This document shows positions 4,307 to 7,837 of a stretch of DNA of 11,232 bases, piece after piece. Within the stretch, counting starts at the first letter, position 1. Every line of letters starts with the position of its first letter. The DNA comes from an uncultured archaeon (lineage in GTDB: Archaea; Asgardarchaeota; Thorarchaeia; Thorarchaeales; CAZPUN01). The stretch is from contig CAZPUN010000049.1 of assembly GCA_964589775.1 (NCBI GenBank), positions 1 to 11,232 on the forward strand, read 5' to 3'. The notes under the pieces are model-generated. The model was given only the letters and a program-made list of their open reading frames with translations, searched no databases and was not told where the DNA came from. The position numbers and the translations under genes are program-made.

Positions 4307-7138
4307 ATGGAACCCAGTAATGTATTTTCTTTATTATCTCCCAAATTGCAGGAACAATTGAAAGAAATCGGATTCATTACACCTACATCTCCTCAAACTA
4401 AGGCTATCCCTGAGATTATTTCAGGACGTCATGTGCTTTTGATTTCTCCAACAGGGTCTGGAAAAACTGAAGCCGCATTACTTCCTATTATCGACTTTAT
4501 TGTTCGTGAAAATAATAGAATGCCTTTGAAAGGGATTGTTGCTTTGTACATTACACCCCTACGGGCTTTAAATAATGATATTTTGGTTAGAATGATCGAT
4601 TTTGCAGCACAAATGGGCGTAAAAATTGAAGTTCGTCATGGCGATACTACGCAGTATCAAAGGCGAAAGCAAGCATTAAAGCCTCCAGACATTTTGATAA
4701 CGACTCCTGAAACACTTCAAGCAATACTACCTGCGCCTGTCATGCGAGAGCATCTCAAGAACATTAAATTTGTAATTGTTGATGAAATTCATGAATTGGC
4801 TTCTTCGAAACGTGGGGCTCAGCTTTCTGTTGCTCTTGAGCGATTAGAAGAATTAATAGGTCATGCTTATCAAAGAATTGGACTTTCCGCAACTGTACAA
4901 AATCCAAAGACAATTGCTCGTTTTCTTGGTGGTAAGGGTCGCGATGTAAAGATAATTGAAATTGAAAATAAAAAGAAACTTAACATACTTGTGGAAACCC
5001 CTCACAAATCTGAAAAGCCTGATAGTTCTGTTTCGCGTATTTTTCGAATTAAGAGAATTGCAGAACTTATAGAAAATCATAGTGGGATTCTCATATTTTG
5101 TAATACTAGACGAACTGCTGAGACAATTTCTCGATTACTAAATGAAATTAAAAAGGATCTATCCATTCTGGTTCACCATAGCTCATTATCTAAAGAAGTT
5201 CGTGAAGAGGCTGAACGCCTATTCAAAGCAGGAAAACTAAAAGCAATAGTTGCAACATCGTCCCTTGAGCTTGGTATAGACATTGGTCATGTGGATTATG
5301 TAATACAATACGCGTCACCTAAGGAAGTGCATCGTCTAATTCAGAGAGTTGGGCGTTCCGAACATAAAGAAAAAACCGTATCTCAAGGTTCTATCATAAC
5401 ATATCCAACATTAGATGATATGTTTGAATCACTTGTTATCGCTTATAATGCTGCACATGGAACAATTGAAAAAATTCGTCCTCATATTCTTCCTTTTGAT
5501 GTTATGACGCATCAAATAGCAGGAATTATCATGGATTATAAAGAAACTGATGTCTATAAGATTTATAATATATTGACCCGAGCTTATCCGTTTATGGATT
5601 TAACGCCTGAGGAATTCAAGAAAGTAATGGACTTTATGGAACAGCAATGGATGTTCAAACGCGAGCGGACAAAAATATTTACAAAACGAAAAACTCGCAT
5701 GTATTATTATTCTGAACTGTCTATGATTCCGGATCAACAGAAATATCTCGTTCGTGATGAAGTTTCTCACATGCGAATTGGATTTCTAGATGAAGATTTT
5801 GTAGCTAGTTATGCGAATCGCGGTGATATTATTGTTCTACAAGGAAACCTATGGGAAGTAATTGATATTGATGGCGATAATCGAGAAGTAAAATGCGTTC
5901 AAGTGAAATCTTCTGAAAGTCGTGTTCCCCATTGGGAAGGTGAGACAATTCCTGTTCCATATGAAGTAGCTCAAGAAGTTGGCAAAATCTGGCATGAATC
6001 CATAAGTGCTGGGATAGATTCTGTGGTTTCAAAATACGAAACGGAACAGATTTCAGTACATGAAAATTTGAAAATACTTTCTGGAAAAATAATAGCAAAA
6101 CAGAAAGCGAGTGGTGTGCATCCCTCAGACACAAAAATTGTCATTGAATATTTTGGTAATCATTTGATAATGCATGCACCCTTTGGAACACGAATAAATA
6201 ACACATTGGCACTATATTTAAGTATTCAATCTACGCTAAGACATGGTTTTGACATTGCATCTGATTTTGATGCATATCGTATTCTTCTTTCAAGTAACAA
6301 GACCATAGATCCAAACATAATAAAACAAATAATGTTTGAGACAACTTCAGATGAGTTATTATCTCTCGTTAAAACTGCGATAAAGAATACAAAGCTATAC
6401 GAATTCCGCTTTTTACATGTGGCTCAAAGGTTTGGCATAATAAAGAAAAACTCCGAACGGACAACCGCAGATCTAAAACGGGCAATCAGAATTTTTAAAA
6501 AATCTGTTGTAGAAGAAGAGACTATTAATGAGATTCTTCATGATAAATTGGATTTAATTGGCACATCACATGTTTTCGAGAAAATACAAAATAAAGCTAT
6601 TGAGCTTTCAATTGTACCTAAAAGCATAAATGAAGCAAGCCCATTATCTCTATATCTACTTGAAAAATCTAATCCGGACCTTGCAGCTGAACTATCAATC
6701 GAGAATGAAATGCTCGAGTTAGTAGAGCAAAGATTATTGAATCATGAGTTCAAATTTGTTTGCATTTTTAAAGGAGACTGGGAAGAAACACTTCCTGTTC
6801 GCCTGGTTGAATTTCCATTGAAGTGCCCTGTTTGTGGTTCTGTGTTCATTAGCACGACTTATACATCCGATAAAGAACTACCGAGAATAGCTCGTAAGCG
6901 ATTTAGAGGTGAAAAATTAAAACGCGATGAATCCGAAATATTTCGACGTGCATGGACTACTTCGTCCTTGATCCAATCATATAAGATGGACGCATTAATC
7001 ACGCTAGCCGGATTTGGAGTAGGCCCTACAACTGCTGCGAGAATATTAGCAAGACCTCACAAAACACGAAAAGACTTAATAAAAGATATCATAGAAGCTG
7101 AAAAGAATTATGTGAAAACGAAACCTTTTTGGGAATAA
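4307..7138 (+). CDS. lhr: Lhr-family SF2 DEAD/H-box helicase, archaeal type with C-terminal Cys-rich and helix-hairpin-helix-like extension
   Basis: Motif I SPTGSGKT, Ia YITPLRALNND, VRHGDT, ITTPETL, II DEIH, III GLSATV, HHSSLS, V ATSSLELGIDIG, VI QRVGRS. Lhr-specific SMIPD, IGFLDEDF and PHWEGE motifs. C-terminal CPVCGS and GFGVGPTTAARIL. Confidence 0.95.
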   Translation: MEPSNVFSLLSPKLQEQLKEIGFITPTSPQTKAIPEIISGRHVLLISPTGSGKTEAALLPIIDFIVRENNRMPLKGIVALYITPLRALNNDILVRMIDFAAQMGVKIEVRHGDTTQYQRRKQALKPPDILITTPETLQAILPAPVMREHLKNIKFVIVDEIHELASSKRGAQLSVALERLEELIGHAYQRIGLSATVQNPKTIARFLGGKGRDVKIIEIENKKKLNILVETPHKSEKPDSSVSRIFRIKRIAELIENHSGILIFCNTRRTAETISRLLNEIKKDLSILVHHSSLSKEVREEAERLFKAGKLKAIVATSSLELGIDIGHVDYVIQYASPKEVHRLIQRVGRSEHKEKTVSQGSIITYPTLDDMFESLVIAYNAAHGTIEKIRPHILPFDVMTHQIAGIIMDYKETDVYKIYNILTRAYPFMDLTPEEFKKVMDFMEQQWMFKRERTKIFTKRKTRMYYYSELSMIPDQQKYLVRDEVSHMRIGFLDEDFVASYANRGDIIVLQGNLWEVIDIDGDNREVKCVQVKSSESRVPHWEGETIPVPYEVAQEVGKIWHESISAGIDSVVSKYETEQISVHENLKILSGKIIAKQKASGVHPSDTKIVIEYFGNHLIMHAPFGTRINNTLALYLSIQSTLRHGFDIASDFDAYRILLSSNKTIDPNIIKQIMFETTSDELLSLVKTAIKNTKLYEFRFLHVAQRFGIIKKNSERTTADLKRAIRIFKKSVVEEETINEILHDKLDLIGTSHVFEKIQNKAIELSIVPKSINEASPLSLYLLEKSNPDLAAELSIENEMLELVEQRLLNHEFKFVCIFKGDWEETLPVRLVEFPLKCPVCGSVFISTTYTSDKELPRIARKRFRGEKLKRDESEIFRRAWTTSSLIQSYKMDALITLAGFGVGPTTAARILARPHKTRKDLIKDIIEAEKNYVKTKPFWE

Positions 7139-7165
7139 ATTTCGAAGAAAAATTGGGGATTTGTC

Positions 7166-7837
7166 TTGATAGATACTAAAAAGTTAGAAAAAATTGTAGG
7201 GCAAAAAATAAACGATATCTCATTGTATAGGTCTGTCTTTTTACTTCCTGCTTTTAATAAGAATGAAAATTATCAAAGATTAGAATTCCTTGGCGATACG
7301 ATTTTAGATATGATTTTCGCAAAATATCTGTTCTTTTTTGAGCCTAAGCTATCTGCACACGAGATGACTCAGATACGTTCAAAAATCGTAAAAGACAACC
7401 AATTGGCAAAATTTGGCTATAAAGTCGAGTTAGATAACTTTTTTGAAGGTAAGAGTAAAAAGATTCTAAATAATTCCATAATGGCGGATATCGTAGAGGC
7501 TTTGATAGCTGCTATCTATTTAGACCTCGGATTTGAGTATGCTTACGATTGGGTAATTAAACATATGAAATCAATAATTCTGGACGCTATCTCATCTCAC
7601 AACTTGATAGACCCTAAATCACAACTAAAAGAACTAATGAATAAGCGAGTTAATAAAGACCCGATTTTTATGGTTATCGAAAGCCGACAGATTGATGGAT
7701 ATTCATGGATTTATAAAGTAAAGGTTATTGCAGATCTTGGTTCTGGCAAAAAGGAAGCGATTGGTACAGGTCCAAATAAGAAAGCTGCAGAAAAAGATGC
7801 AGCTAAAAATTGGCTTGAGAAATATTATACGCACTGA
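7166..7837 (+). CDS. rnc: Ribonuclease III (RNase III domain plus C-terminal dsRBD)
   Basis: Signature YQRLEFLGDTILD (E40, D44) and second motif MADIVEALIAAIYLD (D108, E111). dsRBD DPKSQLKE...GTGPNKKAAEKDAA. TTG start preceded by SD-like ggggat (7155-7160). Confidence 0.95.
   Translation: MIDTKKLEKIVGQKINDISLYRSVFLLPAFNKNENYQRLEFLGDTILDMIFAKYLFFFEPKLSAHEMTQIRSKIVKDNQLAKFGYKVELDNFFEGKSKKILNNSIMADIVEALIAAIYLDLGFEYAYDWVIKHMKSIILDAISSHNLIDPKSQLKELMNKRVNKDPIFMVIESRQIDGYSWIYKVKVIADLGSGKKEAIGTGPNKKAAEKDAAKNWLEKYYTH

Follow-up and report, generated by a model that had tools for sequence, protein, structure and literature searches.

Does an RNase III from an Asgard archaeon that lacks both outer acidic residues of the bacterial enzyme process double-stranded RNA (dsRNA) in the bacterial way, or could it release Dicer-sized duplexes and bear on the origin of the eukaryotic RNase III domains? 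The question was raised by a preliminary description of an 11.2-kb stretch of DNA (hereafter the window), which is an entire contig of a 2.16-Mb host genome (64 contigs, 96.75% complete). That description had read one gene as an RNase III with outer sites like those of Dicer RNase IIIb, had proposed that the enzyme may naturally generate siRNA-length duplexes, and had regarded it as intermediate between the bacterial and the eukaryotic enzymes.

The RNase III gene and its protein

The gene, rnc, occupies positions 7166 to 7837 of the forward strand as a stop-free open reading frame with a TTG start and a TGA stop, and its translation gives a protein (Rnc) of 223 aa. Six nucleotides 5' of the TTG, the letters read GGGGA (7155-7159, forward strand), a Shine-Dalgarno-like box that we regard as a putative ribosome-binding site. 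At the related loci L007/L009, a GGGGG box stands at a comparable distance 5' of the rnc GTG, and the remaining spacer has diverged. The protein comprises an RNase III catalytic domain (RIIID) at residues 32-134 (7259-7567, forward strand), matched by Pfam PF14622 over residues 32-134 and by PF00636 over residues 37-122 with E-values of 1.7e-21 and 2.3e-19, and a dsRNA-binding domain (dsRBD) at residues 150-219 (7613-7822, forward strand; PF00035, dsrm, E 3.9e-8). The span to which the enzyme had been assigned at first, 7226-7528, corresponds to Rnc residues 21-121.

An AF2 model based on 30 homologues (pLDDT 92.6) predicts an all-helical RIIID and, C-terminal to it, a dsRBD of alpha-beta-beta-beta-alpha topology. 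Its best Foldseek matches are the RNase III structures 7r97 (E. coli), 2ez6 and 2nug (Aquifex) and 1o0w (Thermotoga), with E-values from 5e-14 to 2e-12, and Dicer and Drosha rank behind bacterial RNase III. Several features of class 1 are present: the signature with the four acidic ligands, a single C-terminal dsRBD and the bacterial RNase III fold. Two are absent, namely the outer acidic pair (the equivalents of E38 and E65) and a score above the cut-off of the NCBIfam equivalog TIGR02191. This model gives Rnc 148.4 bits, under its cut-off of 166.25, compared with 149.2 for the orthologue P0003, 102-161 for other Asgard Rnc and 206.5 bits for one bacterial relative. Judged from its sequence, Rnc is an intact class-1 RNase III. 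It contains the only RNase III domain found in the host genome and, because the genome has one RIIID gene, a homodimer is its sole option; such a homodimer would be expected to cleave dsRNA in a Mg2+-dependent manner.

Intact metal ligands and replaced outer sites

Alignment with the E. coli K-12 Rnc (from NC_000913.3) places all four metal ligands, with E. coli E41, D45, D114 and E117 corresponding to E40, D44, D108 and E111. The first two lie in QRLEFLGD (E40 to D44, 7283-7297, forward strand) and are invariant in our alignment A1, and the other two lie in ADIVE (D108 to E111, 7487-7498, forward strand). At the outer sites, E38 corresponds to Q37 (codon CAA, 7274-7276, forward strand), E65 to A64 and G66 to H65. 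The A64-H65 codons, GCA CAC (7355-7360, forward strand), supplant the near-universal E-G pair where RNA-binding motif 3 starts, and the translation continues with E66. The two outer sites are 27 residues apart in both enzymes, with no intervening gap in the alignment.

The residue-level reading of the preliminary description was therefore accurate. The alignment bears out the four ligands, the Q and the A at the outer sites, the exchange of 'EG' for 'AH', the numbering and the spacing of 27. It also confirms that the ALTHxS motif has been lost, with VFLLPA in its place, and that NSIMADIVE is without the eukaryote-type Lys, as S104 (E. coli S110) stands at that column.

Other elements that contact RNA depart from the bacterial pattern as well. 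The loop that precedes the second catalytic helix, in the region of RNA-binding motif 4 (7430-7474, limits approximate, forward strand), is 5 residues shorter than in relatives and lacks 'GxGE', as judged from alignment A1 and the E. coli alignment. In the dsRBD, the GPxH loop has become QIDGYS, K155 and N159 take the places of E. coli Q161 and Q165, and the KKAAEKDAA helix is retained.

Rarity of the outer-site states

How unusual these states are was assessed in an HMM-anchored alignment of 567 domains. Of the 80 named bacterial Rnc, 71 have E and 9 (11%) have Q at site 37. Site 64 is E in 79, the remaining one having Q, and 79 have G at site 65, the remaining one having S, so that 78/80 have the E-G pair at sites 64-65. 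Among 243 short homologues, Q at site 37 occurs in 77, A at site 64 is found only in the window lineage, P0203 and P0246, and H at site 65 only in the window protein and its three 70%-identical orthologues (P0003/P0122/P0123). The A64-H65 pair is a real peculiarity; Q37 is ordinary. Outside the window lineage, a few bacteria are neutral at both sites: L116 (a Bacteroidaceae MAG) and P0267 as Q/Q, and P0246 as Q/A. The double-neutral state is thus rare, at ~1% of the sample, yet not unique.

The likeness to Dicer RNase IIIb at the outer sites, both of them non-acidic, stands: eukaryotic Dicer RIIIb-type domains are Q/P in 35 rows. A further 29 eukaryotic rows are Q/E, and human Drosha RIIIb reads NQRMEFLGD...HHEG. 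The use of YQRLEFLGD as a eukaryotic mark does not survive the counts. Since Q at site 37 is common in bacteria, in 11% of named bacterial Rnc and 30% of close matches, and E38Q is near-neutral in E. coli, this motif is no such mark. Among the 28 other Asgard Rnc, P, V, K or S is frequent at site 64 and Q occurs now and then at site 37, but no protein combines the two.

We also observed that the Rnc of Asgard family f22, the largest Asgard group (L015, L020, L022, L027, L029, L030, L032, L033, L035, L038 and L039), have Pro at the E65 site, reading 'DPGE', which can be compared with the 'SPG' of Dicer RIIIb. Most of these proteins also have the eukaryote-type Asn and/or Lys, and they adjoin eukaryotic RIIIa weakly (83) in a quick tree of the RIIID only.

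A small lineage under purifying selection

The lineage that carries these residues is small. An exhaustive HMMER search of 1.84 billion representatives gave one cluster above 1e-30, that of P0003 with 70% identity, and all remaining matches had at most 42% identity. The sequences P0003, P0122 and P0123 originate from two recent NCBI assemblies and a small number of SRA runs; SRR32938005, -008, -009 and -011 contain the orthologues. These orthologues retain Q37, A64 and H65, and begin at the same start residue, encoded by GTG there and by TTG here. Between the two species, rnc has a pN of 0.20 against a pS of 0.69 (saturated), which indicates purifying selection on the gene. Moreover, its GC content of 0.33, against 0.35 for the genome, gives no sign of recent import.

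RNase III domains are widespread in the phylum, with 279 of the 400 sampled genomes encoding them. When the window Rnc was used as the query against 400 Asgard genomes, the best match reached 70.7 bits and 32% identity, and in the sister family f2 there was no match to it at 1e-8. The matches listed in a scan of genome contigs were bacteria only, at 27-37% identity, with no phylum favoured.

Two other groups of proteins came to our attention during these searches. In family f2 (L003, L004, L005, L006), 79 of 86 genomes have another RNase III-domain protein of ~230-270 aa (for example, L006:1012-1833:+ and L004:1114-1803:+), which consists of a ~130-aa N-terminal part without Pfam match and a RIIID, with no dsRBD. 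With G/A at the E40 site and T at the D108 site, this protein has lost two of the four catalytic acids and is probably an RNase III fold without catalytic activity; the RIIID tree places it (99%) inside the Rnc of Asgard family f21. The second group (P0126, P0130, P0134, P0136 and P0200), from metagenomes and transcriptomes, comprises compact proteins of 650-840 aa with PAZ and two RIIIDs (plus a dsRBD) and no helicase domain. They are among the top-scoring matches because their two RIIIDs sum.

Placement relative to bacterial and eukaryotic enzymes

Scored by phmmer on single domains, the best matches reach 85-105 bits for bacterial or unlabelled class-1 enzymes, 70 for the E. coli enzyme, no more than 71 for Asgard Rnc and no more than 64 bits for eukaryotic RIIIb-dsRBD. 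Drosha heads the PDB phmmer list only because its two domains sum. In a quick tree of the RIIID only, the lineage fell within a clade of 95% SH-aLRT containing 45/46 bacteria, and the careful trees put it with bacteria at 51/61 (RIIID alone) and 76/68 (full length). When the lineage was forced into a clade with the other Asgard Rnc (p 0.587) or with eukaryotic RIIIb (p 0.746), the AU test rejected the tree in neither case. These trees place the window lineage weakly with bacteria, and by its sequence it is a long-branched orphan. As its branch is long, attraction artefacts are likely. The preliminary description had looked to alignment and phylogeny for a verdict. The alignment showed the Q/A pairing to be rare; the phylogeny gave no firm placement among the clades, and the gene may be a transfer from bacteria or a divergent Asgard one.

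Two more definite statements were considered and set aside. The label 'clearly bacterial-type' was dropped, as the independent TIGR02191 model scores Rnc no higher than several other Asgard Rnc; a first profile built from the match list had given 230 bits for the window Rnc against 239 for E. coli Rnc, and this near-E. coli score is due to seed bias. The same was done with a kinship to P0143 and P0203, the nearest neighbours in some trees, which lie in plsX-rnc-smc contexts typical of Bacillota/Mollicutes. That grouping is weak, perhaps compositional, and gone in the full-length tree. As a separate observation, the full-length tree joins to the window lineage (70/90) the protein L148 (G087:C582:427-1089), a divergent 266-aa RNase III from an f10 Asgard genome and one of three PF00636 matches in G087; we flag this as a long-branch join.

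The residues of the cleavage site speak more directly to the eukaryotic enzymes. Eukaryotic RNase IIIs (Rnt1p, Drosha and Dicer) have two extra catalytic side chains, an Asn (N5) and a Lys (K6) (PMC9291653). At the N5 column, Asn is found in 112 of 165 aligned eukaryotic domains and in 17 of the 28 other Asgard Rnc, and the window lineage has Asp (D77, codon at 7394-7396, forward strand). At the K6 column, Lys is found in 76 eukaryotic domains and in 18 of the 28 other Asgard Rnc, and Ser in 62 of the 80 named bacterial Rnc; the window protein has this bacterial-type residue (S104, codon at 7475-7477, forward strand). With D77 and S104, Rnc lacks the eukaryote-type cleavage site. By these residues, Rnc is less eukaryote-like than its Asgard cousins, and for this reason it adds little on the origin of Dicer and Drosha.

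It is tempting to see in the lineage a specific relative of the eukaryotic RNase IIIs (Dicer/Drosha RIIIb), or an intermediate towards them, and some of our data would fit. A tree forced to join it to eukaryotic RIIIb-dsRBD is ~1.4 likelihood units from the best careful tree (with the AU value given above), the summed phmmer scores put Drosha on top of the PDB list, and the Q/non-acidic state is that of Dicer RIIIb. However, both N5 and K6 are missing, Q at site 37 is frequent in bacteria, and the per-domain score of Drosha RIIIb (64 bits) lies below those of the bacterial enzymes (71-105 bits). In addition, the unconstrained trees are bacterial, and in them eukaryotic RIIIb groups weakly with Asgard Rnc that bear N5/K6. 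We therefore consider such a kinship very improbable, and we do not retain the description of Rnc as 'intermediate', given the missing side chains, the weakly bacterial trees and the non-discriminating AU test.

Genomic context

Upstream of rnc lies the gene for an Lhr-type DExH helicase of 943 aa (4307-7138, forward strand; Pfam DEAD, Helicase_C, WH_Lhr and DEAD_assoc). From the lhr stop to the rnc start there are 27 nt; the two genes share strand and reading frame, and L007/L009 have the same lhr-rnc order with a 39-nt in-frame spacer. This arrangement suggests that the two genes are co-transcribed. The gene order shared with the orthologues continues as lhr-rnc-membrane protein-lrp-radical SAM, and the neighbours look archaeal (the Lhr helicase, an SbcD-related archaeal phosphoesterase, an Lrp/AsnC regulator and a radical-SAM enzyme). 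The host genome also encodes a profilin domain, which is found in 0 of 14 control prokaryote genomes; together these features make the host very probably an Asgard archaeon.

The lhr orthologues of five f2 genomes (~40% identity) are followed by a GTPase gene and not by rnc, and no Lhr-like gene was found in the flanks of the other sampled Rnc loci. The lhr-rnc pairing is thus specific to the window family. The linkage of lhr to a metallophosphoesterase gene is, by comparison, kept across the order. A complex prediction for Lhr (residues 380-943) with Rnc scored 0.00, which we count neither for nor against an interaction.

Some features of the surroundings deserve mention in their own right. 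The SbcD-like metallophosphoesterase gene lies at 3-782 of the window on the reverse strand, with lhr at 4307-7138 on the forward strand, a linkage that can be compared with L133-L137. Lhr itself has a conserved C-terminal extension with invariant C819, C840 and C843, possibly a zinc ribbon. Finally, positions 824-1636 of the reverse strand encode a 270-aa orphan that has three tandem 'EKASEASEKSQLAF' copies near its C-terminus and no Pfam match.

The common frame of lhr and rnc leaves room for a more radical idea: read-through of the stop codon would fuse Lhr and Rnc into a Dicer-like polypeptide composed of helicase, RNase III and dsRBD. In both species a single stop and a stop-free in-frame spacer separate the two genes (TAA + 27 nt at 7136-7168 of the window; TGA + 39 nt at 7959-8003 of L007/L009), and yet each species has its own rnc start codon and a different stop codon. 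Moreover, the spacer peptides, ISKKNWGFV here and ITNIFNCIWGLSI there, are unconserved except for the G-run, which is the putative ribosome-binding box. We give this fusion hardly any credence.

Ribosomal RNA stems as candidate substrates

Long stems form from the flanks of the host 16S and 23S genes, the 23S stem containing 22 perfect base pairs, and these stems are candidate substrates of Rnc. Long rRNA stems are also present in archaea without RNase III, so those of the host do not show use of Rnc; flank stems fit processing by RNase III or by the splicing endonuclease alike. The 16S gene (G000:C23:20552-22053) and the 23S gene (G000:C23:99368-103215) are unlinked, as they lie 78 kb apart. 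In its 3' half, the 23S gene exceeds the Rfam model by ~880 nt, which probably represent an intron or insert.

Product size and cellular role

In the E. coli enzyme, E38 and E65 stand one at each end of the catalytic valley and belong to the surface that contacts the RNA (PMC9291653). According to the account of the engineered variants given there, E38A/E65A takes away four of the dimer's twelve negative charges and makes the enzyme-RNA complex more stable, and both EcE38A and EcEEQ (E38A/E65A/Q165A, the 'bacterial Dicer') release ~22-nt duplexes via an inside-out mechanism, a mode that the same account equates with cooperative binding of adjacent dimers. The 22-nt products of these variants thus follow from the loss of negative charge at the valley ends; Q165A, for its part, abolishes the preference for G at +3 (PMC9291653, same account). 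What the preliminary description had stated of E. coli, that E38A leads to siRNA-sized products, agrees with this source.

All three EcEEQ positions are non-canonical in Rnc (Q37, A64 and N159), and a prediction of product size is fair because N159 also departs from Q165, the third EcEEQ site. The idea of siRNA-length products thereby gains more direct support than the preliminary description had drawn on. A deep mutational scan of the E. coli enzyme, in the values quoted from PMC10037077, gives E38Q a fitness of 0.99 and a cleavage of 47% vs 69%, with E38A not near wild type; most changes at E65 are deleterious, and E65P is neutral. Since E38Q resembles wild type in E. coli, Q37 by itself may do little; and since most E65 changes are deleterious there, A64-H65 could lower, not tune, activity. 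Weaker dsRBD contacts could likewise offset any gain in binding.

Taken as a whole, the data are best explained, in our judgement with moderate confidence, by a prokaryotic-type RNase III of an Asgard family that has a de-charged valley and serves general dsRNA processing. Rnc would be a homodimeric class-1 enzyme, a Mg2+-dependent dsRNA endonuclease confined to one small Asgard family and maintained by purifying selection. Its cleavage site is of the prokaryotic type, as it has the four acidic ligands but not the Asn and Lys of eukaryotes, and both valley-end acids have been neutralised in the lineage, by Q37 and A64, with H65 in addition taking the place of Gly. Several contacts that read the sequence are altered as well, through N159, K155, the lost His of GPxH and the shorter motif-4 loop. 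By analogy with the engineered E. coli variants, such an enzyme would bind long dsRNA more tightly and with less sequence selectivity; the binding of dimers side by side may then be favoured, with products of ~22 nt rather than ~11 nt. In the cell, its task is likely general dsRNA processing, for instance of sense/antisense duplexes and perhaps of the long rRNA processing stems, and it is probably co-expressed with the upstream Lhr helicase. A role in an Argonaute pathway would not be expected in this genome: the Piwi domain (PF02171) had no match in the 96.75%-complete host genome or in the window, which makes an Argonaute-based use of Rnc products unlikely here.

Two other readings have to be weighed against that of a de-charged enzyme for general dsRNA processing. 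The more ambitious of them takes Rnc for a natural dicer that would convert long dsRNA into discrete 20-25-nt duplexes for a small-RNA pathway. Changes at all three EcEEQ positions, an outer-site state conserved throughout the lineage and a helicase gene immediately upstream are what one would expect of such an enzyme; however, the genome in which it would work has no detected Piwi/Argonaute, E38Q hardly departs from wild type in E. coli, and the helicase is of the Lhr type and not of Dicer's RIG-I-like type, with the other sampled Rnc loci being without a flanking Lhr match. We find this reading doubtful, and we are equally sceptical of a variant of it, based on analogy with the engineered enzymes, in which the lineage naturally reached the 'bacterial Dicer' solution, with a RIIID homodimer making ~22-nt cuts, an lhr operon and an Argonaute-free clearance of antisense or viral dsRNA.

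The more modest reading is that Rnc is a housekeeping RNase III with the products and substrates of bacterial Rnc, and that Q37 and A64-H65 arose by neutral drift, the lineage being small and fast-evolving. Neither E38 nor E65 is a metal ligand, the fitness of E. coli is unaffected by E38Q and E65P, other Asgard Rnc often have a non-acidic residue (P, V, K, S) at site 64, and the lineage sits on a long branch. Drift would have to account, however, for the retention of A64-H65 in orthologues whose synonymous sites are saturated, for the joint alteration of several RNA-contact elements, and for a site at which most changes are deleterious in E. coli. This possibility is one we take seriously, although we think it rather unlikely.

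Comparison with known systems

By its sequence, Rnc belongs to a known family, within which it is divergent and has an unusual periphery of the RNA valley. With the bacterial Rnc (E. coli 7r97, Aquifex aeolicus 2ez6/2nug and Thermotoga 1o0w) it shares one RIIID and one dsRBD in ~220 aa, xRLEFLGD, the four acidic ligands and a Ser instead of Lys four residues before the third ligand, and these enzymes are its best matches in sequence (85-105 bits) and in fold. It differs from them by Q37 and A64-H65 in place of E...E-G, by the absence of ALTHxS, by a motif-4 loop that is 5 residues shorter, by a dsRBD without the Q161/Q165 equivalents and the GPxH His, by a score below the equivalog cut-off and by its Asgard host.

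Dicer RNase IIIb has YQRLEFLGD in common with Rnc, including the Q in place of E38, and likewise lacks an acidic residue at the E65 site. In contrast to Rnc, Dicer has two RIIIDs per chain, forming an intramolecular dimer, as well as PAZ/platform, usually a RIG-I-like helicase, and N5/K6; Rnc has one RIIID, no PAZ and neither side chain, and the helicase next to it is a separate Lhr gene.

Asgard RNase IIIs have already been published as possible forerunners of Dicer (bioRxiv 10.1101/2023.12.14.571608). The Rnc of the HrAgo1 locus (Bastiaanssen et al., bioRxiv 10.1101/2023.12.14.571608) has, like that of the window, a RIIID and a dsRBD, an Asgard host and a helicase gene nearby. Neither the window locus nor its genome shows the Asgard rnc-Argonaute(-helicase) module, however: Argonaute was not detected in the genome, the helicase is Lhr, and Rnc is without the Asn/Lys that most of the sampled Asgard Rnc carry. 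As it stands, the protein described here is one further Asgard RNase III, of a class that has already been published.

The closest functional parallel would be the engineered EcEEQ and EcE38A (PMC9291653; Xiao et al. 2009 as cited there), which, as described in that source, share with Rnc the neutral sites at the valley ends and an altered form of the Gln that reads G at +3. Rnc differs from EcEEQ in having Q and not A at the first site, N and not A at the third, and the extra H65, and it is a natural protein known from its sequence. If the prediction of ~22-nt products is true, Rnc would be an example of a prokaryotic RNase III that naturally yields products of Dicer-like size, and possibly a cheap reagent. 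It would also mean that siRNA-sized dicing can arise in a class-1 enzyme via a few surface changes, independently of Argonaute.
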